Of a stretch of 64,000 nt of DNA, positions 20,500-48,800 are shown piece after piece. Under the pieces are notes generated by a model. That model was not told the DNA's origin. It saw nothing but the letters and a program-made list of their open reading frames with translations, and made no database searches. The position numbers and the translations under genes are program-made. Position 1 is the first letter of the stretch. Every line of letters starts with the position of its first letter. This DNA comes from a virus (taxonomy: Duplodnaviria > Caudoviricetes). The stretch lies in the IMG/VR virus record IMGVR_UViG_3300016263_001265, positions 1 to 64,000 of that record; one strand, given 5' to 3'.

Positions 20500-20707
20500 G
20501 ATGCTCCTTCTTCGCGGCATCGATCATCTTTCTGACCGCCTCAATCGGGCTTTGTGATGCGCCCCTGACGATTCGGTGCTGCGAACCGGAATAGTTTACC
20601 GCAGTCGCAATCCACAGGAGCAGACCGCGAGACATGCCGTCAAATATCCATGAGTCGGGAAGTTCGTTGTCTACAGAGTTCCATAGTTCGTCGAGCGGGT
20701 GTTTCAC
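20492..20707 (-). CDS. hypothetical protein
   Basis: GTGA-coupled. Confidence 0.55.
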   Translation of the reverse strand: MKHPLDELWNSVDNELPDSWIFDGMSRGLLLWIATAVNYSGSQHRIVRGASQSPIEAVRKMIDAAKKEHHG

Positions 20708-21363
20708 TTTTCCCCCTTTGTGATGATCTGGTTTGGCTCGTATGTCCATGCGTCCTGGTCGCCGAGCGGACTGAAGCGCTCACCCTCTGCCGAGTATTCG
20801 ACCGTGCTGACCTTGAAGTCCGGTGTCTTCTTGTTCTTGAATACCAGCGCCTCGTCGTCCCACAGGATGCGGTTGTTCGGCTGGGCCGCGAACTGTCCGT
20901 TCTCCAGTCGGATGAAATTGTACGACTTGTGTTCCGACGGAAGTCTCGAGTAGCCCGTGTCTAGCTCGTTTGGGTCGCCCTCGACAAGGTCGACAGTGAA
21001 CATGTATGTGCCGTCGTGCCACGAGCCCTTGGTGTCGCGGAACTTGCACCCCATCCCCTTGAGGAACGACTTCTCTATGACAGAGATCGCGTTCGTTCCG
21101 ACATCCCAGAGTTGCAGTGTTCCGAGCGGAAGGTCTGGGCTTGGGGTTCTAGGGCTCGTGGTGAATGCGCTGATCGGCAACTTGTCGTACAGCGCGCCGT
21201 ATTCCGGCAGAAATGCTTCGATGTAGAGTGCGCGGTGCCTCAGCGCCTTGACAGAAACCCAGTAGCACGGGGTGAACTCGCCGTGACCATCCTGCAGGTC
21301 GCGCAGGTACTCCTTGCGGACATAGCAGGAAATCGGCGGAAGGTTGGCAAGCGGCTGCGGCAT
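20704..21363 (-). CDS. conserved phage hypothetical protein
   Basis: Long ORF, coupled start and stop. Confidence 0.8.
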   Translation of the reverse strand: MPQPLANLPPISCYVRKEYLRDLQDGHGEFTPCYWVSVKALRHRALYIEAFLPEYGALYDKLPISAFTTSPRTPSPDLPLGTLQLWDVGTNAISVIEKSFLKGMGCKFRDTKGSWHDGTYMFTVDLVEGDPNELDTGYSRLPSEHKSYNFIRLENGQFAAQPNNRILWDDEALVFKNKKTPDFKVSTVEYSAEGERFSPLGDQDAWTYEPNQIITKGEK

Positions 21364-28261: not shown

Positions 28262-30442
28262 TCACGACTTGCCATTTCTTTCTTTCGCCTCGACAGATCT
28301 CATTACCTTGTTTGACCATGCCTTCCCCGGGTCTCCGCCCCAGAGTGCCCAGGCGATTCTGCCAGCAGAGGGGAATCCCTTTTGGCCTGGTGCCCATCCC
28401 TCTCCGCGCTTGTCAACCTCGTGCCTGGCAAGGTAAGAGCGCATCTTTCTAACTCTGGCAATCGTCATCTTGTTGCCGATGAGCATTCGTGCGGTCTGCT
28501 GGCCAGGGCCAATTCCTCCGCGGCCAAACTCTCTTCTCCAATCAAGGCCACGACGCGCTTCTGACTTGACCCCAGATGGCACGTTCAGGTTTATTCCGTC
28601 TGCGTTTTGCTTTTCAACATTTGCAATATTTTTTGCATTCGGATAGGAGGCGGCATATGCCTTTGCGATCTCTTTGTCCTCGTCATAGAAGGCTACGATT
28701 TCGTATCCGTTTCTTGCCGCCTTCTGGGCCTCGTATCGCTTGAACTGCAGCGTTGCATCTGAAGGGAACGTGTTTGGAATGACCTCTTCTACCCTGATTC
28801 CGCAATCCTCCATCATGCCCTTGACCGCTTCGTTGTCGATCTTTGACTTCGTGATCGCAATGACGTGAACACCGGCTTCGATGTACATGTCAATTTCATC
28901 TATGACCTCAGAGGGGCAGTTTTCGCTTGCCACGTCGTCTGACTCGATAATGATCGCGGACTTCTTTCCCGATTGCTGTCTTGCATTCATATCTGGATTT
29001 GGCCTTTCTTCAAGCTGGTCTTTTCCTTGTGCACCCGGGCCGCCCCTCTCGTTGCCGCCAGGGCCTGGCTCGCCACCAACAGGCTCTGGGTTGCTCGGGT
29101 CTCCAACCTTGCCCTTGAGGTACAGCTCGTAATACCTCAAAGGCATGTAGCCCAACGGGCTTGGCATCCAGATCTCGTTGCCCAAATCGCCAACGGAATC
29201 CTGTCCGCGCTCCTTGAGCGCGTCATTGAGCCTGAGCCACGGCAGGCCAGCAAGCGCTGCCTTGTAGTAGTCCGCAACCGCCTGTGCCGACTCCCTGCCG
29301 ACATCCGTGTATACAAACCTAAGGTTTTTGTCGTACAACCAGACGATCTCGCGGGTAATGTAATCCGCGATCAGCTCGCATAGCGGTGCGATACCGTTGT
29401 CGGCAGTGAATGCCGCGCCGTACTCGGATGTGCTCTTGTTAACGTCAAAGTTCAAGCCGATGTCTTGCGGCTGCACGCCAAACACGGCACAGATCTTCCT
29501 CGCGAGGTAGATCTGCCATTCCATGAACTGCATGTCGCGGTTTGACTGGGCCATTGGAATCCACTTAACGCCCTTACCACCACCAGTAATGGCCGTCTGG
29601 CTCTTTCCGGCAATTTCGCCTTCCCAATATGACTTGAATGCGTCGACCTGGTCTGGCCTCACGCCCTCGCCCAAATCGATAATTCCAGGAGGCGTTGCCT
29701 GCTCGACAATGTTGTTGTTGTATTTCGCGGCCCTAAGATCCGCCTCAATTGTCTCCGCAAGGACTTCCAGCGGTGAGAGCCCAAGCGGGGAATACGTTAC
29801 CTTGTTGGCAACAATGACAACCATCTCTTCGTTCTTGTATTCGGCAACGACCTTGCCGGTGTCGTCGTATTCGTAGTACCTTGGCTTCTTGATGTTTGAG
29901 CCGTCCCAATTTGGATCAAAAGCAATCCTTGATCCGTCTTTTGGCCAAAGGTTTTTGATCGGGTCCGAAGACTTTCCGGCTCGCGCCCCGACCGTCAGCT
30001 CCTTTTCAATGCATCCCTGATCAAGAACAAGAATGTCTTCGACAATCGGCTCAATGAAAGATCTCCACGAATCCATTCTTGTATTTGGATCTCTTAAGAG
30101 CGTTTTAATCTTCTCTACAGCAACTGCGTTTGGCGTATTTTCTCCGTCAACCGTGACAATGTCCCACCTGGCCCTGCTGATCTGCTGTCTTCTAAGATTG
30201 ATGGCGGCACGAATCCAGGGGTTGTTTCGCGACCACTTTCGCAGCATGTTGACAGATCGTTTCTGCACTGCGCTTTGACCGGCACCTCGCGCGTACGGCT
30301 GCGCGTCATAATTAGGAATAAGAATTGCGTCTTTTATGGCCTCAACATCTGCTGCGGCTTGCGTTTCTGTTTGGGTGCGCTTAATGCGCTCCCACGGCAT
30401 CATTACCACGTAATCTGCTCCTTCGGCTTTCTTGTTCGCCAA
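28262..30442 (-). CDS. portal protein with C-terminal HAD-like and head-associated domains
   Basis: GLSPLE, PPGII, NRDMQFME...ICAVFGVQP, NDAL.ERG portal motifs, then about 250 extra aa. Confidence 0.88.
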   Translation of the reverse strand: MANKKAEGADYVVMMPWERIKRTQTETQAAADVEAIKDAILIPNYDAQPYARGAGQSAVQKRSVNMLRKWSRNNPWIRAAINLRRQQISRARWDIVTVDGENTPNAVAVEKIKTLLRDPNTRMDSWRSFIEPIVEDILVLDQGCIEKELTVGARAGKSSDPIKNLWPKDGSRIAFDPNWDGSNIKKPRYYEYDDTGKVVAEYKNEEMVVIVANKVTYSPLGLSPLEVLAETIEADLRAAKYNNNIVEQATPPGIIDLGEGVRPDQVDAFKSYWEGEIAGKSQTAITGGGKGVKWIPMAQSNRDMQFMEWQIYLARKICAVFGVQPQDIGLNFDVNKSTSEYGAAFTADNGIAPLCELIADYITREIVWLYDKNLRFVYTDVGRESAQAVADYYKAALAGLPWLRLNDALKERGQDSVGDLGNEIWMPSPLGYMPLRYYELYLKGKVGDPSNPEPVGGEPGPGGNERGGPGAQGKDQLEERPNPDMNARQQSGKKSAIIIESDDVASENCPSEVIDEIDMYIEAGVHVIAITKSKIDNEAVKGMMEDCGIRVEEVIPNTFPSDATLQFKRYEAQKAARNGYEIVAFYDEDKEIAKAYAASYPNAKNIANVEKQNADGINLNVPSGVKSEARRGLDWRREFGRGGIGPGQQTARMLIGNKMTIARVRKMRSYLARHEVDKRGEGWAPGQKGFPSAGRIAWALWGGDPGKAWSNKVMRSVEAKERNGKS

Positions 30443-30642
30443 GATCTAATTGCACTAGTAATTGCTGTCTGATCAAGGTCTTTGTTTACAATCTGTCTAG
30501 CCTCTGTGTAATTGAATGGTATCATACGAACCCCGTCTACCATTCCTATTCCGCGAAAAGATGGGAGCCTAGACCACCACTTTGGCACGACGTATCTCCC
30601 GTCTTCAAATTGCATTTCTACGCTTTCGCTGATATCAAGCAT
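30403..30642 (-). CDS. hypothetical protein
   Basis: ORF track. Confidence 0.55.
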   Translation of the reverse strand: MLDISESVEMQFEDGRYVVPKWWSRLPSFRGIGMVDGVRMIPFNYTEARQIVNKDLDQTAITSAIRSWRTRKPKEQITW

Positions 30643-31174
30643 TTTCCTCTTCGTCCTCGGACATCATTTCCGACAGTGCATCTGGAGATATGTCGAGCCT
30701 CGCAATATCTTCCGGATCAAGGGGGTTTTCTTCCCTGAACTTTTTCCAAAAACCATCATAAACCTTATCATCCTCATCTGCCACCCTGACCAATTCTTCT
30801 TCAACATGCCTTTGATACTTGATCTGCTGGGGCACGCTTCTCTTGAGCCTTGCGAGAAGCTTGTGGCAGTCGGCACACACTGCGTACCGCTTTTGGCCCT
30901 TTGCCCTGGGGACCATTGGCTCCGGTATCAGGTCAATCTCCATGTGGTCAGAGCCGACCATGATCGTGCACAGCGCGCACCTTGGGTGGGCCCTATGTAT
31001 CTCCTCATACCTTTTCATGATCGGGGTGAGGGTTTTCTGTATCTTCCTCATGGCAAGGACGACCTCAATGAGGCCGCTTTCGGCCTCGTTTAGCTCCTTG
31101 CACAGGCGGCACTTGACTGCCGTTTTTTCACACATGCTGACAGTATACACATATCCATGCATCTTGTCTAACAT
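30635..31174 (-). CDS. Zn-binding hypothetical protein
   Basis: CRLC, CALC and CADC motifs. Confidence 0.6.
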   Translation of the reverse strand: MLDKMHGYVYTVSMCEKTAVKCRLCKELNEAESGLIEVVLAMRKIQKTLTPIMKRYEEIHRAHPRCALCTIMVGSDHMEIDLIPEPMVPRAKGQKRYAVCADCHKLLARLKRSVPQQIKYQRHVEEELVRVADEDDKVYDGFWKKFREENPLDPEDIARLDISPDALSEMMSEDEEENA

Positions 31175-31334
31175 TTGGTGTATTATTATGCGTAGGAATC
31201 AATAGCCTTGAAATTTGAAGCTATTAGGGGGATTATTCAGTGGTGCTTATACGGGACTATCTACTGACACAGTCGTCTACCAGCCTGCCTGGTAGGCCTG
31301 TCCAAATAGCAACCAATCACGGTAGCCGGGGGAT

Positions 31335-33395
31335 ATGATTTTGGACTTCAAGATTTACACCAACGCCCTTAAGGCATACGAGTCAGAAGAGGGTGAAAAG
31401 TTCGTTTCGGGAACCACATCATCAACCATTAGGGATCTCCATGGAGACGAGATGTCTCTTGATGCCCTTAAGAGCATGGCGGACACCGCAAGACAGAACA
31501 TGACGGTGTTTCTAAATCACAACTACAATGTTCCAGAGGATCTTTTTGGCTCAGCTACAAGCGCAGATATTGTTAAGCGATACGACCAAGAAAGTGGCCA
31601 GGAAGTATATGACCTCGATCTCAACATCCGCGTTGTTGGCGAGGATGAAAACCCAGAGGCAATGCGAGCGTATCGCGCAATAAAGAGAGGCGTAAAGCTT
31701 GGATTGTCCATTGGCGCAAGAGTTGAGAAGGCAAAGAGAAAGGCCGCAGAAGATGGCAAACCTGAATCAATCTTGATTGAGAAAGTGAGGCTTCTCGAAG
31801 CCAGCGTTGTTGGCATTCCAGCCAATCAGAGATCCTATCTGCAAAATGCCGTCAAGAGCCTGAAGTCTGCAACGGAAATTGACAGCGATGTCTTCGTTGA
31901 CGAGCCGTCAGACGAGAAGGCCGCGAAGTACAGTGTTGGCGACATGGTTCGCTGGGGGTCAAGCGGCGGCGATGCCACCGGCAAGATCACAAAGATAGTT
32001 TCAAACGGCAAACTTGATGTGCCAGGCTCTTCATTTACAATAAACGGAACACCAGATGACCCGGCCGTCTTGATCCGCGTCTACAGAGACGGAAAGCCAA
32101 CAGAAACTCTTGTTGGCCACAAGATGTCAACTCTTAGAAGCGCCAAGGACGCTGTTGAGGTAATCGACTCGGTAAAGGCTGTTGAGGTTGAGGGTGAAAC
32201 TTCCCCCGAGAAGGCGCCGCTTGTCGGTGCGCTTTACAACCTTCTTGCCGAGGCCACTGCATTCTATCTTAAGGCTCACGGCGCCCATTGGAATGTTATT
32301 GGCGATGACTTCGCCACCTATCATGATCTTTTTGGTGAAATCTATGAGGATGTGCACGGGTCTCTTGATCCGATTGCAGAAAGCCTCAGAAAGCTCAACT
32401 CTCCGGCGCCCGCTGAGTTGAAGGATCTTGCCAGAATGACAGTTTCCAGCGAAATTGCCGAGGATTATGAGGCCGAGAGCCTTGCCGCGGCACTTTATGC
32501 TGCAAACGAGTCCCTTATTGAGGTGATTATGGTTGCCTTCAAGGCTGCCACCGATCAAAACCAGCAAGGGATTGCAAACTTCCTGGCAGAGCGTCAGGAC
32601 ATGCACCAGAAGTGGTCATGGCAGCTTCGCTCCTCGCTTGCCGAGGAATCCGAAGAGGAAACCGACGGAGTGTCGGGTGAACAGTCCGATGAAAATAGCG
32701 ACGAGCAGGAGAAAAATATGGACAACGATTTGGAGAAGAAGACTCGCGTCACCGTCACGGTAAGCACCGACGGCGACGAGAAGCAGCCAGCGGCAGTCGC
32801 CGCGCAGCCAGAAGCAGCTGACCAGGATGTCACAGAGGACAAAGAAGAGGTCAAGGCTTCTGCTGAGCCGGGTGACGGCGAGGCGGCAGAAACTGTTGAA
32901 GAGGAAGTCGCGGCAGAGGAGACCGAGAAGGATCCATCTGTCGAGGCCCTTGAGGCGCTTGGCGCCACGCTTGTCGAAGCCGAGAAGTCGGCCGACGGCG
33001 AAAATGAATCGTCCGCACAGCCAGAAGTGGCCGAGGCGGAAGTTGTTGCCGGGGCGGCCGAAGAGGTCGTTGCGGCGGCGGAGAATGTCGAGGCTGACGA
33101 GGCCCCGTCGATAGACGAGGTTAAGTCAATCGCAAAGTCCGCTCTCGATGCAGCCAATGCTGCCCACGAGGAGGTCGCTGCCCTTTCGGCAAAGGTGACC
33201 GAACTTGCTGAGGCCAAGGCCAAGGTCGAAGAGGATCTTTCGAAGGCGCTGGACCTTATTGAGCGCATTAGCGCACTTGGGGTTGGCCGAAAGTCTTATG
33301 ACCGTCCGCAGGAAGTTCGTGTGAAGTCACCGGAGCTTGCTCCGTGGCTGAGCCCATATGTACAGCGCGTTCTTGAAGCGCGCGATGAGGAGTAA
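31335..33395 (+). CDS. HK97-type prohead protease fused to Tudor-like, Dps/ferritin and acidic scaffold domains
   Basis: D.HGD...FLNH...GLSIG...LLEASVVGIPAN; VGDMVRW; HWNV.G..F...H..F.E.Y...D.IAE; acidic tail. Confidence 0.88.
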   Translation: MILDFKIYTNALKAYESEEGEKFVSGTTSSTIRDLHGDEMSLDALKSMADTARQNMTVFLNHNYNVPEDLFGSATSADIVKRYDQESGQEVYDLDLNIRVVGEDENPEAMRAYRAIKRGVKLGLSIGARVEKAKRKAAEDGKPESILIEKVRLLEASVVGIPANQRSYLQNAVKSLKSATEIDSDVFVDEPSDEKAAKYSVGDMVRWGSSGGDATGKITKIVSNGKLDVPGSSFTINGTPDDPAVLIRVYRDGKPTETLVGHKMSTLRSAKDAVEVIDSVKAVEVEGETSPEKAPLVGALYNLLAEATAFYLKAHGAHWNVIGDDFATYHDLFGEIYEDVHGSLDPIAESLRKLNSPAPAELKDLARMTVSSEIAEDYEAESLAAALYAANESLIEVIMVAFKAATDQNQQGIANFLAERQDMHQKWSWQLRSSLAEESEEETDGVSGEQSDENSDEQEKNMDNDLEKKTRVTVTVSTDGDEKQPAAVAAQPEAADQDVTEDKEEVKASAEPGDGEAAETVEEEVAAEETEKDPSVEALEALGATLVEAEKSADGENESSAQPEVAEAEVVAGAAEEVVAAAENVEADEAPSIDEVKSIAKSALDAANAAHEEVAALSAKVTELAEAKAKVEEDLSKALDLIERISALGVGRKSYDRPQEVRVKSPELAPWLSPYVQRVLEARDEE

Positions 33396-33398
33396 AAA

Positions 33399-34634
33399 AT
33401 GTCTGAAGTAAGAGAGAAGCTTCAGGACGTTGCTAAGGGACTTGATTCCCTTAATGACGCCCCGATTGGCAGAGAAATCGATACGGAGAAGAAGTCATCG
33501 TTCGATCCCGCCGAGGCCTTCGCCGTTCAGCGCGAGCTTCGCAAGAAGTTCTCAAAGCTGTCGACGATCGAGCTCAACGAGATGCTCGATGTTCAGGCCT
33601 CGACCCAGGCTGGCAAGCAGGCTGACTCAGCCGTGCTCAATCAGCTTGCGATGTCGAACCCACAGATTGCAAAGGCCCTTGATAGCTCGGCCGGTACGGC
33701 GCTTATCCGCCAGGACCTCGAGCCAATCCTTTACAGCCTGTTTGTAAAGAAGTTCCCGTTCTTTGAGCGCATCCGCAAGGAGCCTGCAAACGGCCTCGTG
33801 CATGCGTTCAACCAGCAGACCGCCTACGGCGACGCAGTCTTCCAGACGGAGACCGGCACCGTGACGGACGATACCGCGACCTACAGCCGCCAGACGACCA
33901 ATGTGGCCGTTCTTGCGACCCGCCGTGGTATCACGCTCAAGAATCAGTTTGCGCTTGGCCAGGGCGGCTCGCCGTTCAATGGCCTTTCGCAGGAGCTTGG
34001 CAGCGGCGTGACCGCCATTGCGCACAAGCTTCAGAAGACCCTGTTCCAGGGCAACGCAACCGTCACGGCGAGCGCCGGATCCAACACCGAGCTTGGTGCT
34101 TATGACGCCAACTCGTTTGATGGTCTCCGCAAGCTCCTCGGGACGGCCGCCTCGGCTGGCAACGAGATCGTTGGCAAGGGTACGGCTTCGTACCTCTCGA
34201 CGATCAACACGGCCGTCGCTGGTGTTCTGGACAACGGTGGCGCTCCGTCGGCCATCGTCTGCACCCCAACCGACTACGCTGGCCTTGTAAACGAGCTTAC
34301 AAACCTCGTCCGCTACAATGCCCCGTCGCAGGTTGACCAGGCTGCAGGCGCAACCTTCGGTTCGGTTGTAACGGCTGCGGGTTCACTCCCGATTCTTGCC
34401 GTTCCAGGCGATGCCATTGGTCAGTACGCAATCTCCAGCACGGACTACCGCGATCTTTACATCGTGGACGAATCCGGATGGTCGATGCCATACCTCGGAT
34501 CTGACTCGATCACGACGCTCGAGATTCCGATTGGTGTCAACGGTGCCCTTACGCGCCTCTACATCATGTATGTGATGTTCGGGTTTGCCAACAAGGCCCC
34601 GCAGTTCCAGGCGAAGGTTCGCGTCACGGTCTAA
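33399..34634 (+). CDS. major capsid protein
   Basis: Follows the protease, 411 aa, followed by a hairpin terminator. Confidence 0.85.
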   Translation: MSEVREKLQDVAKGLDSLNDAPIGREIDTEKKSSFDPAEAFAVQRELRKKFSKLSTIELNEMLDVQASTQAGKQADSAVLNQLAMSNPQIAKALDSSAGTALIRQDLEPILYSLFVKKFPFFERIRKEPANGLVHAFNQQTAYGDAVFQTETGTVTDDTATYSRQTTNVAVLATRRGITLKNQFALGQGGSPFNGLSQELGSGVTAIAHKLQKTLFQGNATVTASAGSNTELGAYDANSFDGLRKLLGTAASAGNEIVGKGTASYLSTINTAVAGVLDNGGAPSAIVCTPTDYAGLVNELTNLVRYNAPSQVDQAAGATFGSVVTAAGSLPILAVPGDAIGQYAISSTDYRDLYIVDESGWSMPYLGSDSITTLEIPIGVNGALTRLYIMYVMFGFANKAPQFQAKVRVTV

Positions 34635-35013: not shown

Positions 35014-35092
35014 TCAATTTCAGTAGCTTGTGATGGGGCTCGCAGGACCTATTTTAGGTGATTTGCGGGCCCCATTGCTTTAGGATGTGAGC

Positions 35093-36007
35093 ATGACAAG
35101 AATTACAATCAACATCACGGATCCGACATCTGCGGCTGCGACTTACACGCACATACAGGTTGGCAGGGCGTCGAGCGAGGATGACGCCAATTCTCAGTCT
35201 GGAAGCTTTGTAAATCTTGGGTCTGTTGCGACCCTGAACCAGTATGTTGGCGTATACCAGCACATAGACTCTGGATCTCCGGTCGGATACTGGTACGTGT
35301 ACAGGCTCTGGTCATCTAGCTCTGCTGGCTCATGGTCTTCCGCATTTCAGGGCAAAGAGCTTGGGTATATTACCGTGTCGGAGCTAAGAGACTACGAGAT
35401 CGGCGCGCTTTCAATGCCTGACGGGACCGAGTCAACCGACAACAGGCTTGAAAGACTCATATCCGTTGCATCTTCAATGGTTGACAGTTACTGCGGTTTC
35501 TCCTTCCAGTATATGGAGTCAACAGAGCAGCACAGCTGGGATCAAAACACAAGAAGGGTATATCCCTACAATAGTCCGATCATCTCAGTAGAATCCCTTG
35601 AGGTTTTTGTCAGCAACCAGCAAAAGGCCACCTTCAGCACAAATGACCTTTTTGTAAACACATCCCAGAACTACGTTGAAGTCACCAGCCTTGCCAACGT
35701 CACGTATTCTCTTTTCCCGGCAATAGTCGCACTTGGGCTCATCCAGCCGGTTGCAAAATTGACGTATAGACACGGGTTCAAGGTAACTCCACACGAAATA
35801 AAAGACGCAACCGCCCTCATCGCCATAGACCTTGCGGCAAGAGACTCGCTGTACCAAAGTGGCATGGGCCTGCTGACCAAGCTGACGGTAGGGGATACAA
35901 CGATGGAGCGCCTGCCGCAGGTTGCTGCCGGTAGGTACTCTGCCCTATCCGTTCCGCCAACCGCGGCCGCAATCCTTGATCAATACATCTCGGTGTCCCT
36001 GAGATGA
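35093..36007 (+). CDS. head-tail adaptor with N-terminal beta-rich extension
   Basis: YITVSEL...LISVASSMVDSYCG...P..IKDAT pattern. Confidence 0.75.
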   Translation: MTRITINITDPTSAAATYTHIQVGRASSEDDANSQSGSFVNLGSVATLNQYVGVYQHIDSGSPVGYWYVYRLWSSSSAGSWSSAFQGKELGYITVSELRDYEIGALSMPDGTESTDNRLERLISVASSMVDSYCGFSFQYMESTEQHSWDQNTRRVYPYNSPIISVESLEVFVSNQQKATFSTNDLFVNTSQNYVEVTSLANVTYSLFPAIVALGLIQPVAKLTYRHGFKVTPHEIKDATALIAIDLAARDSLYQSGMGLLTKLTVGDTTMERLPQVAAGRYSALSVPPTAAAILDQYISVSLR

Positions 36008-39221: not shown

Positions 39222-42200
39222 CTATTTCCTGTTTTCCAGTTCTGCGATCTTTGATTCGGCCAAAGAAAGTCTTGCCCTTGCGTCCTTTAGCGAGGATATC
39301 AGCGCATATGCAATCTGATAGATGTCTATTCCGGCAATCGTATCTTTTGTTTTTGGCGTCATGGCAGAAGGAAGAACGGACGCAATCTCTTGCGCGATTA
39401 CGCCTATGGATACTCCCTCCTTTGAGGGGGTAAAGTACCCTTCTGACCTTACCTTTTCCAGATCCCACTCAAATGAGTATATGTTTATCTTGTCTATTGC
39501 CGAAGGGTCGATTTGATACAAAGATATGTTTTTCTTATAGTCTGCGTCAGAAAACGAGTTGCTTGTGCTCAATGTGCCCCTAATCAGCAGGCCGCCGGTT
39601 TCATTCAAGACCATGTTTTTTGTCAGCGATGACCCGTTCCACTCGCCAAATGTTACCGACTCTCCGCTCGGAACAGCAAAGTCACCCTCTGCACCAGAGG
39701 CGGAAACATACAGTGCTGGCGCCCCACTTGGGTTCAAGTTGACGTTTTGCATAACCGCATCAACGGCTGTTAGCGTACCTCCGTTGCTTACGTCAAAGTT
39801 GCCTCCTATTGACAAGGAACCGCCTGTAATCGTAATGTCAGATGCGGAAACCGCCCCAGCAGTGTCTACGGTGAATGCATCGTTGATGTTGATTGATCCG
39901 CCAGTAATAGAGCCACCTGTAACGTCAATATTTGCCGCCGTGACTGCACCTGAATTTGAAACCTGAAAATCACCGCTTCCAAAATTTATTCCGCCACCGG
40001 TTATTGTAATGTCACTCGCGGTTACCCTTCCGTCAAAGTCCACAGTGAAATTAGGGGAAGATATTGCAAGGTCGTCAACCTTGATTTCTACCGTTCCTGT
40101 GATTTGCGTCAAAGGAACAGAGCCGCTTGAGTTGCTTGTAAACCTGATGACTCTGCCGTTTGACACCGTACCGTTCGTGTCGGACTGCGGGGTGATGTCG
40201 CCAGCGGATAGATTAAACAGCCTTATAGTTCTTCCAGTTGTTGCCGATGCATACGGAGATATCGAGGTGAGTGAGACGGGCGTTGCCGCAGATGTCGCGT
40301 GCGTGTAGTTTATTGTCCTGTAGTTGTTGAACGAGCCACCGCTGGCAGATCCTGGCGTGACAAATGCGGCTGTCAGTCCTGATACAACCAGAGTCTTTCC
40401 GTTGTCAACTTTTGCCCCAGACAAAACCTGCGTATCAGACACTGGAACTAGTGCCACGGGCGAACCACCAGTTCCAGCAGATATTGGAAGTGTATAGGTT
40501 ACAGAACAGTAGTTTGTCGCGTACGCCGCAGTCGTTGTGGCAATGTTTATGTTTGAACCGGCAGCAAGATACACATAGAAGTTTTTCCCAGTGTCGGCAA
40601 TCCCAGACGCCGCTGTCAATGCAACGTTTGGCGTGTTTAGCGAGTATGTGAATGTGCTTGGATTGTTTCCAGAAGGAACGGTTGCAATAAACGATCCGCT
40701 GTACGGGACGGGCAGGCCGGTGATTTTCACCGTGTCGCCGCTCAATATACCATGCGCCATTGCCGTTGTTATTGTAACCACGTTGCTCGTGACTTGATAT
40801 GATATTATGCTTGCTCCGGTTCCAACAACCTTTTTCCCTCCGTTGTAGTCACTGGCGGCACCAGAAATAGAAACGTAGTCTCCGTTTTTAAATGCAACGG
40901 GGGTAGATGTAGAAAATATACCGTATCTTACCGGCGGAGTAGAGTCGTATACAGCGATTGCAAACGTGGCGACTGTATCTGATGGGGTATATGCCCATAC
41001 ACCTGGATCGTCTGATGTTGCTGTTGTCAGGGTTTTTGTTGCAAGTGCAATTGTTGCGTTTGTTCCGGAAGTGTTTGTTCCATGTTTGGAAAAACCAAGA
41101 AGTGAGTATCCTGCAGGTGGCGTTACCGAGGTGACGTTTACGTCGTCAATTGCAAGCCCGGTGAGGATGACTGCGTTCTGCGTTGATCCAGGAACAGTTA
41201 CAAGACCGGGATCAACAGTATTGCCAGTGTTGACATACGTAGAAAGAGCAATCGTTCTTCCGGAACCGCTAGACCTAAAGACCTGGGTTCTTGCGACTGT
41301 TGCGGTGCTTGTCCCGGTGACTACAAGGGTTGGAACCGTTACGCCCGATTGAACAGTGTAAGAAAACAGAGAAACAGAAGGATCTGATCCACCTGTATTT
41401 GATCCAACCTTTACCCACCCAACGCTTGTCGTTGCGTGCTGTGTTCCAGTGCTTTCGTCAGATGCAACCGCGCAAACAATGAGGTCTCCAACCTTGAGAT
41501 CTGCTGCCGCTGGAGGCGTAACCTGCACAGATGTCGTACCAGTTGCCTGAGTTGTCAAACCGGAAACCACGCTTATTGACGGAGGAACAGAAGAAATATT
41601 GAAAGCTTGCGTCCTTATGATTGGAGAGTCTGTCCTTGTTGCGGTAAAAACCCCGTCATACGGAGACCCAAGGCCAGAAACCACTATCGTCTCGTTTGCC
41701 GATATTCCGTGATACCTTGAAGTTCTTATCGTGGCAACGTTTGATACTCGGGAATAGTCTTCGACCGCAGATCCAAAGTCATGCGCTGTCCTGGTGCCAT
41801 TTATTCCGGCAGTTCCTGTTGCAAGGATTTCAACGGAGTCTCCAGAGACAACCGAATGGGGAGTCGTAGAAACAAGAGTTGCGTACGTGTCTTGTCCTTG
41901 CGTCGGGACAAGGTCTGTGCCGAGGGCAGTCGGTACTCCCTGCGCCTTGAGCGCAGTGGCGTTCAATATGCTTCCTATGGACGTGGCTGTCGTGTTGGCG
42001 TCTGTGTCTGCACCCGTTATTGTTACCGAGTTTCCAGAGTCAAAGGCGTGCCAGTTGAGCGTTCTTACCGACACGGCTGATCCCCACTTGGTTTTGTGGG
42101 TAACGTCTTCGTCGGTGTGCTCAGCCGGAACGTCGGTCAGATTCATCGACGTATCTATTCCAGTTATCGTCACAAGCTGACCAGGAGATATTGCGTGTTC

Positions 42201-45200
42201 CTGGTTAAGCGATATTGCTCCTGTGGTACCGTTTTTTGCCTTTCTTGAGGTTGGAACGCTTAGTTCAGATATCGTTCTCGCCCCGTCAAATCCAGTCCCG
42301 GCTCCAGCGATGTTGATGGTAAGCCCTGTCTCTGTAACACCATGTTCTCTTAGCGTCCAAACAGTCGCGTTGCTTCCGGATCTGTACTTGTAATAAAGGG
42401 TTCTTGTTCCAAGCGTTTCACCCCACCTGTTGTCTATGGTAATTTTCCCAGCCTTGAGTACCGATGCGTCTATTCCCGCAGCAGAAATAAGTCCCGTTGT
42501 GATAGAGCCAACAACAACGTCTGAGGTGTTGATTGCGTTTTCCCAGGTCGTTCCCCCAACGGCAACCTTCCGCAGGCCAGGCGGCGTTCCGCCAAGGTGA
42601 TACACGATCATTCCCTCTGGATATCTTGCCCTTAGCGCAGCACTGTTTGCTATGTCTGGCAAATCGCTTCCAGATATGATTTGAAGCGGTCTGAGGCTTG
42701 ATTCAAGTTTATCAATTGTTATAGATCCGTCTCCAATGTCAATTTGCGTTGCGTTGGGGGTTGTTGGATTTGTCGGATCTGAGTATTTACTGAATGTTCC
42801 ATCTGTTGATATGGCCCTTACCCTATATCGATACTGAAGAGCCGTTATCAAGCCAGTGTCGTTTGCATACGTTGCATTTGTGTTTTGAATTGTTCTAAAG
42901 TCGTTGAAGTTGTAGTAGGCATATCCGTCTACGTCTACGCTGTCTATTGTTCCGCTTTCCAGGCAAACGTATTCAAAGCTGTTTGTGTACGTTTGTGAAA
43001 CTACCCACTGGCCGTTTAAGGATAAAATGCTTTCGTCTTCTGAGTCTATCTCTATTCTAACTGTGTCATTTGCAACCATTCCGTGTGGAGTCTCTGTTTC
43101 AACCGTAACAGTTGATCCCGAGCGAGAAACGGTAGCTATTTCCTTGAATATTGCGTCTTGCCTTTGAAGCTCAAACGAAGAAAGGTTTTTGTTTATTTCA
43201 ACATCTTGATCAAATCTCCAGGAAAGAGATATCATTTTTTCGTTTGCGGAAACGGTCACATCCGTTGGTGTGTCCGGAACTGGCGGAACTGGATTTACAT
43301 CGTCAAGCTCTTTTATCTTTTCGCTCAGGCGTATAAACGCGCTTCTCTGAAGGCGGATGTCGCCGCCGACCGTGATCGTATAGACGACATCCATTCCCAT
43401 CATTCTCGCCTGCACCGACTTGACAATAAGCGGCTTGGCAACGCCAACAAGCGTCCACAGGAAAGGTATTACCTGGCCAACTTCAGGTACAGGGTAGGTT
43501 GAGCCAGATGCGCTTGATGGGCGCATCTCAAAGGTATACGATTCGATCGGCAAGCCGTTTTCTTTCCAGAAACCTTCTGCGGCAAGTTCTGCATCCTCAA
43601 GGGTTTCTACCCTTTCGTCGGTGATTGCCGCCTCAACTATCTTCCCGTTTGTTGCCCATATTCCTGGAACAAAGTCGTAGTCGACATACTGTACTGGATT
43701 TCCGCTGCCGTCTGTCAGCGCGACCTTGTTTCCGTTTTCGTCTTTTGTCCTGAAAACGGCGTACAGATGAAGCCTGTTTACCGATGCGCCAGACTCTACC
43801 GGGCTGCTTGGAACTTCCATCTCGTAAACTGGGACAGCGTATGAAACAGAGTCCTCAAAGTCGCCATATGCCATTTGGCCAGTAATTTCTATTGCACTCC
43901 AGTCGGTAAACGATGCAGATCCGTGTTGCTGGGTCGTGCATGTCCCCCTCAGGCCAAATGAAACAGCATTGGCAGGAACTTCAACAATCTTCCAGATTCT
44001 TTCCCAAGAATGAACCGATTCTCCAGTGAGGTTTCCTATATGAGTTGAACTTATCTCTGCCCCGGCAGAGTTGTACCAATCAACATATGCGCCCCATCTA
44101 TTTTGATGATCTGATACATGCCCCCTGACGGAAACAAAATACTTTTTCCCAACAGATGTAGGGACTCTTTTGTCTGTTGATGTCTCTATTGACGTGTTGG
44201 ACGTGCTTGATAGAACCGTGTATCCGTGGCCGTATGGGCCGCTTGTTGACGATTGCAACGAAAACCCAGAGGCGGTTGTCCACCCGTCGATGTTTCCATC
44301 GTACATCCCGTTGAACACAAGCTCTTTCGGAGTCTTTGCTCGATAGTGCAGTTTGCAAGAGTAGTTACCAGACCCGTCTAGCTGCCCCCTGTCTACCCAG
44401 TATTCTGCACCTGTTTTTTCTGATATGTAGTCAAGAACGTTCCTAACAGTTCTTCCTCCGTACTGCTCGGCATTTGCAGTATCGCTCTCTGGAAGATACG
44501 GGCTAAATCGATACTGCGTGTCTACTGCCTCAACTGCTGACGTAACGTCTAGCCCTATCTGGGAAAGCCAGGTTTTTTCAAAAAGACCGCCAAACACGGA
44601 AACCGGATATAGCCAACTTCTGATGTTGTCTTTTCCAACGCCAAGCCTGTAGTAGCCGCTGTCAAACCAGTTTCCGGAAAGAGTTTGCGTGCTGGCTGGA
44701 GTTGAGGCTGGCGAGGTCAGTTTGTACATTTCGCCGTCCGCGTATCCACGGGGTGATCCGTAGTAGATATCCTCTGGTGATTGCGTGGTCGAGTACGAGG
44801 ATATATATGCTGCGCCGCCAGACGATAGAATTGCGTTTGTTATTGAGGCGGCACCGTCTTCACCGTTGTTTTTGTATGTGATCCTGTTTTGCGCTGGAAC
44901 GCTGTTGATAACCACATAATCTTCAATCGCAACGGAAAATCCTGGAGTCTGAGGAATGCTAACAACAATCGGGTCTCCAACCGAAAGGCCGTGAGAAGAC
45001 TCTGTTTGAATTGTTACTATGTTTGAAGATCTTGATGCCGATGTTATCTTGATCGAAGAAAGAAGCGCCCTCGACTCTCTTGCCAGATAACTTTCGCTTG
45101 AAGACCCACTTCCGGCAGTTTTTACTATATAAATCCTGTGCCTATTTGCGTTTCCTGCGGTTTTCCACTTTACCTTGATGCTTTGAGTTGAGGTCCCGGC

Positions 45201-45878
45201 CGAAAGCGTAATTGTATACGGCTTTGTAACTGGACCAATTTGTGGCGCCTGACCGTCTCTTCCTGGGATTGTTGTTGACAGCGCTTGCGCCCTGATCTCA
45301 TATGTTCCGTCCGTAAGAGAGCCGCCAGTAGACTGCGATGTCGCCGAGAGACCGTCAACCTGGCCAACAACAGCAGGAAGGGCGCCAGCGAGGGTGTATG
45401 TCGTCTCTGTGCTGCCGGTGATGATATCAATGTCTCTCGAGTCTCTTGGCGCGTAATAGTCGGCAACAATGTGCTCTTCAAGCATCGCAGTGTTGTCGGC
45501 GCATTCAATATTCTGAGTTACCGTTCCACCTTCTCTTGATGTTGAAACCCTGGTGACCACGCCAGAAAACAAGACGGTGTCTGGAGATGTTGAGGTATCA
45601 AATATGATGACTTCTGTCTTGTTTGGGATTTCAATGACAAAAGACTCGTCAAGTATTGCCGCATTAAGCTTGTCTGCAAACGTCGCCCCAGAGTAGTCGT
45701 ATACCGTCCCTTGGTATGCTGGCAATATTGTCCACAGCTTTATCGTGGCTGTTGCGCTTGTTCCCTCGCTATTGCTTTCCCAGCTCAGGTTTTCGTAGTC
45801 GACGCGCGGGCTGATGTCATAGAAAGCCTGGGTCTGCCCCTCGTACTTAAGCCGAGCAAATATCTTTACCGTTGCCAT
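39222..45878 (-). CDS. giant minor tail / tail-tip / fibre protein with C-terminal S74-type chaperone
   Basis: Directly after the TMP; FN3- and CBM-like segments, repeated HG..GD.V.I modules, SD...KKNI...GVIAQE end. Confidence 0.85.
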   Translation of the reverse strand: MATVKIFARLKYEGQTQAFYDISPRVDYENLSWESNSEGTSATATIKLWTILPAYQGTVYDYSGATFADKLNAAILDESFVIEIPNKTEVIIFDTSTSPDTVLFSGVVTRVSTSREGGTVTQNIECADNTAMLEEHIVADYYAPRDSRDIDIITGSTETTYTLAGALPAVVGQVDGLSATSQSTGGSLTDGTYEIRAQALSTTIPGRDGQAPQIGPVTKPYTITLSAGTSTQSIKVKWKTAGNANRHRIYIVKTAGSGSSSESYLARESRALLSSIKITSASRSSNIVTIQTESSHGLSVGDPIVVSIPQTPGFSVAIEDYVVINSVPAQNRITYKNNGEDGAASITNAILSSGGAAYISSYSTTQSPEDIYYGSPRGYADGEMYKLTSPASTPASTQTLSGNWFDSGYYRLGVGKDNIRSWLYPVSVFGGLFEKTWLSQIGLDVTSAVEAVDTQYRFSPYLPESDTANAEQYGGRTVRNVLDYISEKTGAEYWVDRGQLDGSGNYSCKLHYRAKTPKELVFNGMYDGNIDGWTTASGFSLQSSTSGPYGHGYTVLSSTSNTSIETSTDKRVPTSVGKKYFVSVRGHVSDHQNRWGAYVDWYNSAGAEISSTHIGNLTGESVHSWERIWKIVEVPANAVSFGLRGTCTTQQHGSASFTDWSAIEITGQMAYGDFEDSVSYAVPVYEMEVPSSPVESGASVNRLHLYAVFRTKDENGNKVALTDGSGNPVQYVDYDFVPGIWATNGKIVEAAITDERVETLEDAELAAEGFWKENGLPIESYTFEMRPSSASGSTYPVPEVGQVIPFLWTLVGVAKPLIVKSVQARMMGMDVVYTITVGGDIRLQRSAFIRLSEKIKELDDVNPVPPVPDTPTDVTVSANEKMISLSWRFDQDVEINKNLSSFELQRQDAIFKEIATVSRSGSTVTVETETPHGMVANDTVRIEIDSEDESILSLNGQWVVSQTYTNSFEYVCLESGTIDSVDVDGYAYYNFNDFRTIQNTNATYANDTGLITALQYRYRVRAISTDGTFSKYSDPTNPTTPNATQIDIGDGSITIDKLESSLRPLQIISGSDLPDIANSAALRARYPEGMIVYHLGGTPPGLRKVAVGGTTWENAINTSDVVVGSITTGLISAAGIDASVLKAGKITIDNRWGETLGTRTLYYKYRSGSNATVWTLREHGVTETGLTINIAGAGTGFDGARTISELSVPTSRKAKNGTTGAISLNQEHAISPGQLVTITGIDTSMNLTDVPAEHTDEDVTHKTKWGSAVSVRTLNWHAFDSGNSVTITGADTDANTTATSIGSILNATALKAQGVPTALGTDLVPTQGQDTYATLVSTTPHSVVSGDSVEILATGTAGINGTRTAHDFGSAVEDYSRVSNVATIRTSRYHGISANETIVVSGLGSPYDGVFTATRTDSPIIRTQAFNISSVPPSISVVSGLTTQATGTTSVQVTPPAAADLKVGDLIVCAVASDESTGTQHATTSVGWVKVGSNTGGSDPSVSLFSYTVQSGVTVPTLVVTGTSTATVARTQVFRSSGSGRTIALSTYVNTGNTVDPGLVTVPGSTQNAVILTGLAIDDVNVTSVTPPAGYSLLGFSKHGTNTSGTNATIALATKTLTTATSDDPGVWAYTPSDTVATFAIAVYDSTPPVRYGIFSTSTPVAFKNGDYVSISGAASDYNGGKKVVGTGASIISYQVTSNVVTITTAMAHGILSGDTVKITGLPVPYSGSFIATVPSGNNPSTFTYSLNTPNVALTAASGIADTGKNFYVYLAAGSNINIATTTAAYATNYCSVTYTLPISAGTGGSPVALVPVSDTQVLSGAKVDNGKTLVVSGLTAAFVTPGSASGGSFNNYRTINYTHATSAATPVSLTSISPYASATTGRTIRLFNLSAGDITPQSDTNGTVSNGRVIRFTSNSSGSVPLTQITGTVEIKVDDLAISSPNFTVDFDGRVTASDITITGGGINFGSGDFQVSNSGAVTAANIDVTGGSITGGSININDAFTVDTAGAVSASDITITGGSLSIGGNFDVSNGGTLTAVDAVMQNVNLNPSGAPALYVSASGAEGDFAVPSGESVTFGEWNGSSLTKNMVLNETGGLLIRGTLSTSNSFSDADYKKNISLYQIDPSAIDKINIYSFEWDLEKVRSEGYFTPSKEGVSIGVIAQEIASVLPSAMTPKTKDTIAGIDIYQIAYALISSLKDARARLSLAESKIAELENRK

Positions 45879-48800
45879 TTATATCCTTCCGACGCCAGAT
45901 GACCTGAGAAGTGATCGCTGCGCCCTCGAGACTTCTTCGGCAAGCTTCCTTATGTCCTGATCGTTTCTGACCGTTGGATTGTTGATTATAACACTTGCGT
46001 TGACCGAACCGCCAGAACCGCCAGCAGCGCCTATGCCGTGTATGGGGCGTATTCTCCTCGGGAACACCCTGGCGACGCCGCCAGGAACCACTTGCAACGT
46101 TTCCCTTCCGGCTTCCCCGACAGTAAACATCCCTGGGCCCATGATTGTACCGCCGCTTGCAAAATTTGCTATAGGATCATCTTTGCCAAGAATTTTGGTC
46201 AAAGACTTCAGGCTCAAAAGTCCAGCGGCAAATCTTTGCTCAATTGACTGCGCGTTTGCTCCTGTTTTTGTAGAATCAACGTATATTTGCCTCATCGGCG
46301 CACCAAACGCAAACCTGCCCAATGCGTTTGACATAATGCGACCAAACGTCATTGCAAAGGATATGCCCTTTTGTATTGGTCCGGCCGCCGCCTTGTCTTG
46401 AAGGGCTTTCCAGAGCCCCATGAATCTCAGCCTTACTGCATGAAGCGCAAGCTTCTGCGTGCTCTCCGTCATTGAGGCGGTTTCCTGGGCAACCTGGTTT
46501 GTTATGGTCATCCCGTGCCCCTGCCAGTTGTCGTATGGCCTTCCGCCAAGAGAGTCTGGTGAATTATTGGAGAAACCGGTTGTATCTGTTTCCACGTCGC
46601 CCGTGTCTCTCGGGTCGTTGAGTGACTTTATTGCACGCTTCAGTCTCTTTATCTGGGCTATGAATTTATCGACAACCTTCTTTAGCTTATCAATGATTGG
46701 GTCCCATGTTCCAACAAAATTATCACCAAATTCTGCCGCGTCTTGAACAAGATTTGCGTCCAGGTCTCCAACAATGGCAAACGACTCGCTGTAGAGCGCT
46801 TGTATCTTTGCAATTGCCTCATCGCCAGTAATTTTTCCGGCCTCAAGCTGAGCAAGTATGTCTTCCATTCCCTCTTGGAACTTAAGTCTGACAGATTCAA
46901 ATTTTTGCTCAAGGTCTGTGACGGCGTTTTTGTACGGAGTCGATGTCAACGCCTCGTCGAGGGCAATCTTCTTCCTTTCTAGGGCCGCCTCCCTCACGGC
47001 CGCGGTCTTTGCCTCTTCTGCTTCACGCATTCTTGCCGCCGCCTCTAGCGGGTCGACGCTTGCGTCGTACTGAGCAAGCCTTGCCAGCTCAACGTTCCTT
47101 GTTGCCTCTCTGATCCTCTTTTCAATTTCAAGAAGCCTGTTCTTTTTCTCTTGTGCTTCAATTTCATCTCGCAAAGCTTTTACGTTTGTCGTAACTCCGT
47201 CGTACACAACTTCGAACGTCGAGTCAAGCGTGTCCCTCGCTTTTTCAAGGTCTTTTTGAAGTCTTTCGTCAAAAAGCATCATGATTCTGTTTGATAGCCT
47301 TCCAGAAAGCTTTTGTATTGTTGACCTAAGCTTGTCTACTGCAGCTTGAAGCTTGCTAACCTTTTTCTGAGCCGCCTCCGCAGCAGCACCGGCGTTGTAT
47401 AGGTTGTACGGAAGGTTGTCAAGCTTGATTCCAAATTCTTTTGCAAGCACAGAAACAAACTCTTGCAGCTGCTCTAGGCTTGTAAACTTTGGCGCCTGCG
47501 CAAGCCTTATAGCGAGTTCTGCCATAGCCGCCTTGCCAGCATTTGAGTATGCAGTCCAGTCCCCAGCACCCTTTGCAACCGCCTGATTTTGCCTTGTCAT
47601 TTCGTCGGTAATAAGATTCAAGACCTTAAGCGTGTCTGCAAATTCTTTCTTTCCTATTGGAAGTCTTGCGGATACTGATTGGAGCATTTCAGATGTGCTT
47701 GGCAGTGTGTTTCCAGTGCCCTTCATGGCGCCAACAATTTCGTCAATTCTTATGTCATAGTTTTGAAGAAGGCCGTTAATCTCCTCAACGGTAAGCTTCG
47801 TGTCGGCAAATGCGTCCCTGAGAGCTATGGCCCTTTGGACCTCTGGACTGTCTACGATTCCGCCCTCTGCCTGCTGGGCCGCAACGTCTGGCATTCCAAG
47901 TGAGTCTGCAACACTTGTTCCGATGCCAGCTGTAACATTTGACGCAAGCACTGAGCCAAGGATCGGAAGAAGAAGTGCGCCGACACCGCCGGTAAGCCCT
48001 ATCATTCCTGCGATTCCAGCGCCGATGGCGGCACCGCCAAGTGTTCCAAGAAGGTCAAACCCGCTTTCAACCGCCACCCTTCCGGTGTCCTCTCCAGACG
48101 ATATTCTCCCGGCCGCGCTTGCAAGGGTGAGTCCGCTTGCAACAAGACCGCTTGTTCCTATCTTCTTCAACGCCCCAGCGCCAAAGTTAAGTGCTGTCTT
48201 TCCTCCAGTGATTGCCAATGTCCCAAGTCCCTTAATTCCAGTAAGCCCTGCGGACTTGCCCTTTGTAAGCGCGGCAAGAGCAAGGGCCGGAAGCCCAAGG
48301 CTTGTAATTTTTCCGAGCAACGAAGAGCCAGCTGTAACGGCGCCTGCCTTTGCTGCCTGCGCAAATGTTTTTACAGAGCTTGCAAACGCCGACACAGCAG
48401 TCTGGAATCTGCCAAATGTGCTTACCGGGCCAAGCGCGCTTGTCTGTATTGGGGACCTGACAGTAAATCTATTTGCGGCAAAGTCAAGAGCGCTAGTAAA
48501 TGGCCTTGCAACGGCCTGCCTTATTCTTTGCCCAATTGGCGCCATCGCCCCCTGCTCGCCCCAGTTGCCAACACCTGGGAATACTTTAGACATCGTTGCG
48601 CTTCTTGCCGAGAGAATTCCTCTGTATGCTGAGTCAAATGCTCCGATAGATAATGTTATAACTTTGTTAAAAGCCGCAGTAAAACCAGAAGTAAATTTGC
48701 CGGAAATAAGATTTTTTATCTTTGGGATTGTATCCTGAACAACCCATGGCCACGTAAACAATTTGTACATCGCCTTGATGTATACGTCGATGGCCTTGTC

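Follow-up and report, generated by a model that had tools for sequence, protein, structure and literature searches.

The DNA analyzed here (the window) comprises the first 64,000 nucleotides (nt) of the IMG/VR virus record IMGVR_UViG_3300016263_001265, a tailed phage from a freshwater metagenome, whose lineage is known from lake-water metagenomes. The complete viral genome is 84,616 bp long, exhibits direct terminal repeats, and carries portal, adaptor and tail genes. The window exhibits one uninterrupted open reading frame (ORF, 31335 to 33395, plus strand, 686 amino acids (aa)) in which an HK97-type prohead protease, a Tudor domain, a Dps (mini-ferritin) domain, an acidic linker and a scaffold-like C-terminus follow one another, as identified by Pfam and PHROG profiles and a full-length AlphaFold2 (AF2) model. 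An earlier description made from the letters alone (the sequence-only reading) had placed a protease (to about 31870), a Tudor-like segment (31925-32135), a Dps domain (32220-32640) and an acidic region in this single ORF; translation, Pfam, PHROG and residue composition confirm all four, and its boundaries proved right within a few codons. Three Pfam families score above their gathering thresholds: Peptidase_S78 at residues 55-176 (E-value = 1.5e-7), Hva1_TUDOR at 202-254 (E-value = 4.9e-8) and Ferritin at 299-436 (E-value = 7.7e-8). The Dps domain is the one ferritin-family copy found in the genome.

The Dps domain occupies residues 296-436 (32220-32642, plus strand) and is recognized by the Pfam Ferritin profile, by a PHROG family and by matches to solved structures. 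PHROG 3636, a phage Dps-type family annotated as "DNA binding protein", covers residues 296-435 with an E-value of 2.3e-25. A sequence search of solved structures returned 54 Dps-type chains, the best match being the Pseudomonas aeruginosa Dps (PDB: 8ff9; PA0962), aligned over residues 10-155 of its 156 with 33% identity (E-value = 1e-19). The AF2 model of the 161-residue segment 284-444 has a predicted local distance difference test (pLDDT) score of 89.6, with helices at segment positions 8-37, 43-70, 79-84, 97-124 and 128-152, that is, four long helices and, in the BC loop, the short one that characterizes Dps. Foldseek aligned this model to more than 30 Dps crystal structures with template modelling (TM) scores of 0.80-0.87, and to 8ff9 with 0.84-0.87. 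The domain is a genuine Dps and not a chance match, and its intactness, which the sequence-only reading had suggested, is borne out by the structure prediction. In established Dps cages both termini lie on the exterior, which is compatible with an internal fusion.

The ferroxidase-type motif quoted in that reading is also present. The codons of the predicted ferroxidase centre (32286-32381, plus strand) encode H318 (32286-8), the adjacent W319, H330 (32322-4), D345 (32367-9) and E349 (32379-81). The spacing of the four ligands H318/H330/D345/E349 is canonical (12/15/4), and they align with those of 8ff9. Among the homologues that possess the Dps domain (about 113 of 120), H318 is invariant, and H330, D345, E349 and W319 are kept in 111 to 113, with two exceptions each for H330 and E349. 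The corresponding H, W, F, H, D and E columns are invariant in 88 otherwise unrelated Dps fusion proteins. Against nine relatives, the ratio of nonsynonymous to synonymous substitution rates (dN/dS) of the Dps domain is 0.08-0.21, with a dN of 0.11-0.33 and saturated synonymous sites; these values are similar to those of the protease domain. The Dps domain is under purifying selection. From its ligand set, we predict that it is catalytically competent.

The charge of the domain suggests which of the known Dps activities it may exert. Its net charge is -12, and the flanking stretches are also acidic (net -4 for residues 271-295 and net -43 for residues 437-592), with no Lys-rich tail. Judging from the charge composition of the domain and its flanks, the Lys/Arg-rich N- or C-terminal tail of the DNA-binding (E. 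coli type) Dps subclass is absent. Because of this net charge and the lack of a basic tail, DNA coating in the manner of E. coli Dps is unlikely; for the same reasons we consider that the domain probably serves as an iron/peroxide sink rather than as a DNA-coating protein. The phage domain thus shares with bacterial Dps (PA0962/8ff9 and E. coli Dps) the four-helix bundle, the BC-loop helix and the canonical ligands with their adjacent tryptophan. It differs in lying inside a head protein of 686 aa, whereas bacterial Dps is a free protein of 150-190 aa. It also differs in lacking the Lys-rich DNA-binding tail and in belonging to a clade that is mostly fused.

The N-terminal part (residues 1-180; 31335-31874, plus strand) is an S78 (HK97-type) prohead serine protease, with a PF04586 score of 32.1 bits (cut-off 21) and a match to PHROG 80 (head maturation protease). 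H62 and S125, the latter in the motif G-L-S-I-G, are invariant across 48 homologues and are the candidate catalytic pair. The assignment to the S78 family is carried by the above-threshold profile, by these conserved histidine and serine residues and by the position of the gene in a head module, beside portal and capsid genes. The protease is followed by a β-barrel passenger of the Hva1-type Tudor family (residues 202-270; 31938-32144, plus strand; PF11160 E-value = 4.9e-8, or 1.5e-9 when scanned alone), which is present in about 70 of 120 homologues. Two cultured phages, Roseobacter phage CRP-811 and Limnohabitans phage DC31, carry the same domain in proteins of the head module. In CRP-811 it lies in gp45 (L082, 3078-5528; 816 aa), which is encoded directly after the portal gene and annotated as "major capsid protein"; its Tudor domain is 55% identical to the present one over about 70 residues. 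This protein probably fuses protease/scaffold and capsid parts and carries a passenger, so the deposited annotation looks incomplete.

Between the folded domains lie segments of uneven conservation. A K-A-V-E-V-E-G motif (residues 281-287; 32175-32195, plus strand) precedes the Dps domain by about nine residues. Its K281, E286 and G287 are conserved in 116 to 118 of 120 homologues, and the motif accompanies the Dps module with or without the Tudor domain; it is a candidate processing site or module joint. The cleavage rules of T4-type or phiKZ-type proteases are not transferable to an S78 enzyme, and no cleavage site is claimed. After the Dps domain comes an Ala/Glu-rich linker of 156 residues (437-592; 32643-33110, plus strand), which is 33% Asp+Glu and predicted to be disordered, in agreement with the acidic region described in the sequence-only reading. 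This linker is poorly conserved and varies in length among homologues. Within it, a framework motif T-R-V-T-V-T-V (residues 470-476; 32742-32762, plus strand) is conserved in 97 to 111 of 120 homologues; it stands downstream of every passenger and is kept in nearly all architectures, including the passenger-less protein of locus L080. The C-terminal helical end (33111-33392, plus strand; helices 593-647 and 674-685) is found in all architectures with our local C-terminal profile, and a Pfam scan of this scaffold-like end was blank. We presume that it is the scaffold or capsid-docking part.

The full-length AF2 model depicts four folded modules separated by disordered linkers, like beads on a string, and finishing in a 55-residue helix. 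It exhibits a beta-rich protease followed by a helix (residues 1-160, pLDDT about 70), an all-beta Tudor barrel (204-263, about 80), the Dps domain (291-435, about 90), the disordered acidic stretch (438-590, about 30), the 55-residue helix (593-647, 85-88) and a terminal helix (674-685) of lower confidence than the preceding one. A complex prediction for the capsid protein with the C-terminal 97 residues of the protease-scaffold protein, using alignments for both, scored 0.20 against a mark of 0.32 and is silent on docking either way.

The gene is located between the portal gene (28262-30442, minus strand; Pfam Phage_portal at residues 75-409, PHROG 2662/12) and the major capsid gene (33399-34634, plus strand; 411 aa; Pfam SU10_MCP E-value = 9.2e-10, PHROG 752/212 major head protein). 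The capsid gene starts 4 nt past the stop of the protease-scaffold gene, and the ORF list holds no separate scaffold gene between the two. A head-tail adaptor (35087-36007) further marks the head-module position of the S78 gene. No close cultured relative of the capsid protein was found, its link to SU10-type phages being given by the Pfam SU10_MCP match alone.

In λ (C/Nu3), Mu (I/Z) and P2 (gpO), nested or fused protease-scaffold genes are a known arrangement of tailed phages. The present gene resembles them in that one frame, directly upstream of the capsid gene, begins with a prohead protease and finishes with a presumed scaffold; it differs in that the Tudor domain, the Dps domain and the 156-residue acidic linker separate the protease from the scaffold-like end. 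A further, possible likeness to the λ C/nu3 gene overlap (PMC11739229) is a putative free-scaffold start inside the linker (32707-32720, plus strand), composed of a Shine-Dalgarno sequence AGGAG (32707-32711), a 6-nt spacer and the in-frame ATG of M462 (32718-32720). GGAG precedes the ATG in all 20 of the relatives having an in-frame ATG at this place, compared with 73 of 506 (14%) for all internal ATGs. The spot lacks an ATG in 26 of 46 relatives, and methionine is found at the M462 position in 71 of 120 homologues. This start could be used to give a free, nested scaffold protein of 225 aa.

A comparison of relatives bears most directly on what the middle of the protein is for. A word-based search retrieved 425 homologues, most of them on 78-91 kb contigs; profiles made for each of the four modules served to classify 80 IMG/VR loci, the architecture counts covering complete ORFs. 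The protease and the C-terminus are constant across these 80 relatives, and the middle is variable: protease-Tudor-Cterm at 37 loci, protease-Tudor-Tudor-Cterm at 16, protease-Tudor-Dps-Cterm at nine, protease-Dps-Cterm at four, protease-Tudor-Dps-Tudor-Cterm at two and protease-Cterm at one. The two Tudor-Dps-Tudor proteins are encoded at L004 (2610-5051) and L016 (8004-10463), and are 813 and 819 aa long. Five different middles (none, Tudor, Tudor-Tudor, Dps and Tudor-Dps) occur among phages whose capsid proteins are 91-93% identical to the present one. Phages with a 91-93% identical capsid protein and an 83-89% identical protease lack the Dps domain or carry another passenger. Five Dps-less relatives (records of 73-91 kb, four of them 92-100% complete) exhibit no ferritin-family match anywhere, and the control genomes all respond to the same search. 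The comparison thus indicates that the middle of the protease-scaffold protein is a swappable passenger slot, and that Dps is an optional accessory in it, not required for building this capsid.

Divergence is uneven along the gene. Relative to L001, L003, L017 and L023, synonymous divergence is 0.33-0.47 in the C-terminal part, and this low-divergence part runs on into the 91-93% identical capsid gene; in the protease and Dps domains synonymous sites are saturated. From this difference, recombination has made the coding sequence 31335-33392 a mosaic, its breakpoint lying within or close to the acidic linker. A tblastn search of 50,697 deposited phages with the whole protein found no fused relative, returning separate Tudor or Dps matches only.

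The Dps domain taken alone has a much wider distribution. An exhaustive, profile-free search with this domain yielded 3,378 representatives at E-value ≤1e-3, 95 of which were below 1e-30. Among the best 146 representatives, 115 are longer than 200 aa, with the Dps domain at the start, in the middle or at the end of the protein. We scanned 88 multi-domain representatives for partners. By Pfam, these include Peptidase_S78 (22), Peptidase_S78_2 (3), a Mu-like protease (1) and Phage_Mu_F (2), as well as HAD phosphatase, Zeta-toxin kinase and others; by PHROG, the head maturation protease family PHROG 80 (25) and PHROG 2859 (13). Scanning protein by protein revealed such combinations as a MuF-like head morphogenesis domain with Dps, and a protease with PHROG 2859 and Dps. 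This Dps clade is mostly fused, its partners spanning three prohead-protease families and MuF-type head proteins. The survey of other phages thus found the fusion to head proteins repeatedly. Seven PHROG "portal protein" partners were rejected as portal-Dps fusions, the matches being confined to profile positions 361-807, a passenger region shared with proteases and virion proteins. One member of the wider clade (P0121, 777 aa) exhibits two tandem Dps domains. Some relatives in GenBank bear only the label "DNA-binding protein Dps [uncultured Caudovirales phage]" (e.g. CAB4174567.1).

Free-standing Dps proteins are also known from phages. Those of the Kuravirus/phiEco32-type and 7-11-type podophages are remote homologues that share the H-W-N-V ... 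H ... D..AE ligands with the present domain (hhalign E-value = 2.8e-6 and 7.6e-9); the identity is only about 35%, across 49-69 aligned columns. These and the free-standing Dps of phage G and of gut phages are encoded by separate genes, in the Kuravirus and 7-11 types among nucleotide-metabolism genes. The literature reads the free-standing proteins as DNA-binding or host-supporting enzymes, and phage Dps has been described as helping the host against oxidative stress (PMC8008677; PMC6669764). Mass spectrometry (MS) has detected free-standing Dps-like proteins in virion preparations of SU10 (PMC4281155), Privateer (PMC7881722) and phage G (PMC12484599). As support for packaging these detections are weak, because the SU10 list also includes a DNA polymerase and thioredoxin. 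In the open-access literature, we found no description of a Dps or ferritin fused to a head protease or scaffold.

Taken with the anatomy of the gene, we regard as probable, though by no means secure, the following interpretation: the protein is a protease-scaffold polyprotein whose constant ends enter the procapsid and whose middle holds optional cargo, the Dps domain most likely acting as an iron/peroxide sink beside the packaged genome. The constant S78 N-terminus and the C-terminal helical, scaffold-like part would take the polyprotein into the assembling procapsid, where it would co-assemble, perhaps with a shorter scaffold initiated at M462 in the λ C/Nu3 manner. The protease would then cut the linkers. 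The folded Dps domain would stay with the DNA because it is too large for the pores of the shell, and would oxidize and sequester Fe2+ with H2O2 or O2. The phage genome would thereby be spared Fenton chemistry while the virion is in oxic, sunlit lake water, and perhaps also during delivery. Loading is suggested by the covalent position of the Dps domain between the protease and the scaffold-like end, by the capsid gene following 4 nt on, and by the recurrent fusion of this Dps clade to head proteases and MuF-type proteins; under this interpretation the domain would be packaged, cleaved out, retained, oligomeric and active. The sequence-only reading had proposed that the phage may carry an iron-detoxifying or DNA-protecting module in its head. 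The anatomy and the comparison of relatives favour the loading of such a module, while protection by DNA binding is not supported, given the net charge, the missing Lys-rich tail and the acidic flanks.

Several observations weigh against this interpretation. S78 systems usually digest and expel their scaffold fragments, and degradation might be the fate of the Dps domain too. Close relatives lack Dps entirely, so that any benefit must be conditional. A strongly acidic protein in a DNA-filled head would be physically unusual. The presence of DNA polymerase and thioredoxin in the SU10 list makes carry-over of abundant non-structural proteins possible, and the free-standing Dps genes behind detections of the SU10 type sit among nucleotide-metabolism genes, outside the head module.

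Protein loading of phage heads has precedents. T4 internal proteins enter the head through a capsid-targeting sequence (PMC3012670), and effectors fused to MuF or portal proteins have been described (PMC5512222). The present system resembles these "polyvalent" effectors in that the assembly machinery would bring enzymes into the head and in that passenger sets vary between close relatives (PMC3012670; PMC5512222). It differs in its carrier, here the protease-scaffold protein itself and not MuF; relatives of this Dps do co-occur with domains of the Phage_Mu_F or head-morphogenesis kind. The survey of polyvalent proteins (PMC5512222) contains none of the words Dps, ferritin and Tudor.

Encapsulins provide a parallel in mechanism. 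There a terminal docking segment leads a ferritin-superfamily iron enzyme into a shell of the HK97 type, and on the phage side the C-terminal helical end would do the same for Dps. The phage, however, packages DNA and has a portal, a protease and a tail, whereas the encapsulin shell has neither portal nor DNA. The cargo also differs: in the phage it is a Dps-type domain internal to a protease-scaffold protein, and in encapsulins a separate protein bearing a short targeting peptide at its C-terminus. The parallel is thus best taken as an analogy of mechanism only. By this comparison, the Dps domain would be classed as head-internal cargo loaded through assembly proteins, akin to encapsulin cargo in mechanism and not in membership.

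Other fates for a head-borne Dps have to be weighed. The domain might be stored in the head and ejected with the DNA, as a delivered effector that shields the incoming genome or alters the iron or redox state of the host early in infection. Injection has been proposed for MuF- and portal-fused enzymes (PMC5512222), and ejected T4 internal proteins counter host defences (PMC3012670). The domains that co-occur within the Dps clade, among them HAD phosphatase, polynucleotide kinase, RNA ligase, DNA methyltransferase, Zeta-toxin kinase and RelA/SpoT, resemble early-acting enzymes. A Dps dodecamer of about 9 nm is nevertheless too big for the tail channel, and a monomer or an unfolded chain would be needed. 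Few copies would reach the cell per infection relative to its iron pool, and the sequence bears no mark of an ejection protein. We therefore regard delivery into the host as unlikely, if worth keeping in mind.

If the domain left the virion altogether, it could act as a cytoplasmic helper, limiting oxidative damage late in infection; it would be fused for the sake of co-expression, then cleaved, degraded and lost from the mature particle. S78 proteases do normally clear the interior of the head. The Kuravirus-type Dps is a free middle gene beside thymidylate synthase and thioredoxin genes, and the published role of phage Dps as an oxidative-stress enzyme supporting the host (PMC8008677; PMC6669764) agrees with such a function. 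The location of the present domain does not: a cytoplasmic enzyme gains nothing from a position between protease and scaffold, and as long as a scaffold tethers it, it would be confined to the prohead rather than free in the cytoplasm. Co-expression alone also hardly explains why the clade has fused independently to three families of protease and to head proteins of the MuF type. A role in the cytoplasm accordingly strikes us as rather improbable, slightly more so than delivery.

The sequence-only reading had offered, as an alternative to packaging, that Dps oligomerization forms a scaffold core. In such an arrangement, Dps dodecamers would gather twelve protease-scaffold chains into a spoke-like hub that nucleates or sizes the procapsid, the ferroxidase activity being incidental. 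Dps 12-mers are very stable and their outward termini make an internal fusion sterically possible, and a long flexible linker and then a capsid-proximal helix follow the Dps domain. The apparent dispensability of Dps argues against this role: Dps is missing, with nothing or only Tudor domains in its place, in phages whose capsid protein is 91-93% identical and whose protease and C-terminus differ little, and the Dps-less relatives have no ferritin elsewhere that could replace it. A purely structural role would moreover need no strict conservation of four metal ligands. We thus disfavour the scaffold-core proposal and hold it to be very improbable. Equally hard to credit is an iron payload, in which Dps in the head mineralizes iron during assembly and the virion store aids the next infection or shifts iron partitioning in iron-poor water: the storage capacity of a Dps cage reaches a few hundred Fe atoms, lake-water metagenomes are where the lineage was found and iron in phage tails has been proposed under the Ferrojan Horse hypothesis (cited in PMC10892097), but release and delivery through the tail would be required, and Dps is dispensable in close relatives.

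Under the preferred interpretation of Dps as head-loaded cargo, the placement of the gene points to an enzyme travelling with the genome, whereas phage Dps has so far been read as a host-supporting metabolic gene. If confirmed, an antioxidant or iron-handling enzyme would join the short list of proteins packaged in phage heads, and phages would offer a natural parallel to the encapsulins that load ferritin. A molecular handle on the uneven resistance of environmental phages to oxidative and sunlight decay would also be gained. The passenger slot, with its constant ends and swappable middles, is itself a design, supplied by nature, for bringing proteins into HK97-type shells. New in the present analysis are the comparison of this slot among phages with near-identical capsids, the absence of a ferritin gene in the Dps-less relatives and the possible nested start at M462. 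A bolder extension, to which we lend limited credence, is that many aquatic tailed phages build a working mini-ferritin into HK97-type heads, their virions being natural ferritin-loaded compartments with antioxidant and possibly iron-store functions. Were this true, such heads would be a viral counterpart of ferritin-loading encapsulins and, plausibly, a step in the evolution towards them; they would also affect phage survival in sunlit water, and iron partitioning there, in a way that has been overlooked.

Some further features of the locus deserve mention. Contigs of 151 nt matching the Dps region (32347-32716) with 1-3 mismatches are present in two lake-water libraries, from two studies, recorded as metatranscriptomes; these are no proof of transcription, carried-over DNA being possible. 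The portal gene (minus strand) and the protease and capsid genes (plus strand) are divergently transcribed, which is unusual in a head module. The gap between them (30443-31334) contains a Cys-rich ORF (30635-31174, minus strand, 179 aa) with several C-x-x-C pairs and with no PHROG or Pfam match. The portal protein itself exhibits a C-terminal extension of about 200 residues (residues about 520-726; 28262-28930, minus strand) after a Gly/Pro-rich linker. A Pfam scan of this extension was blank, and its last domain (residues 605-721) belongs to PHROG 2859 (E-value = 1.9e-19). Given the occurrence of PHROG 2859 in 13 of the 88 Dps fusion proteins, this domain looks like another head-borne passenger.

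Farther away, an ORF at 20704-21363 (minus strand, 218 aa) matches PHROG 3704 "ferredoxin" (E-value = 7e-81) and has no Pfam family; it may be of interest in the vicinity of an iron-handling head protein. Two giant, largely unassigned ORFs adjoin each other at 39222-45878 (2,218 aa) and 45879-56303 (3,474 aa), both on the minus strand. The former ends with a Peptidase_S74 intramolecular-chaperone domain, as is usual for tail fibres or spikes, and a segment of about 100 residues in the latter matches tape-measure PHROGs.

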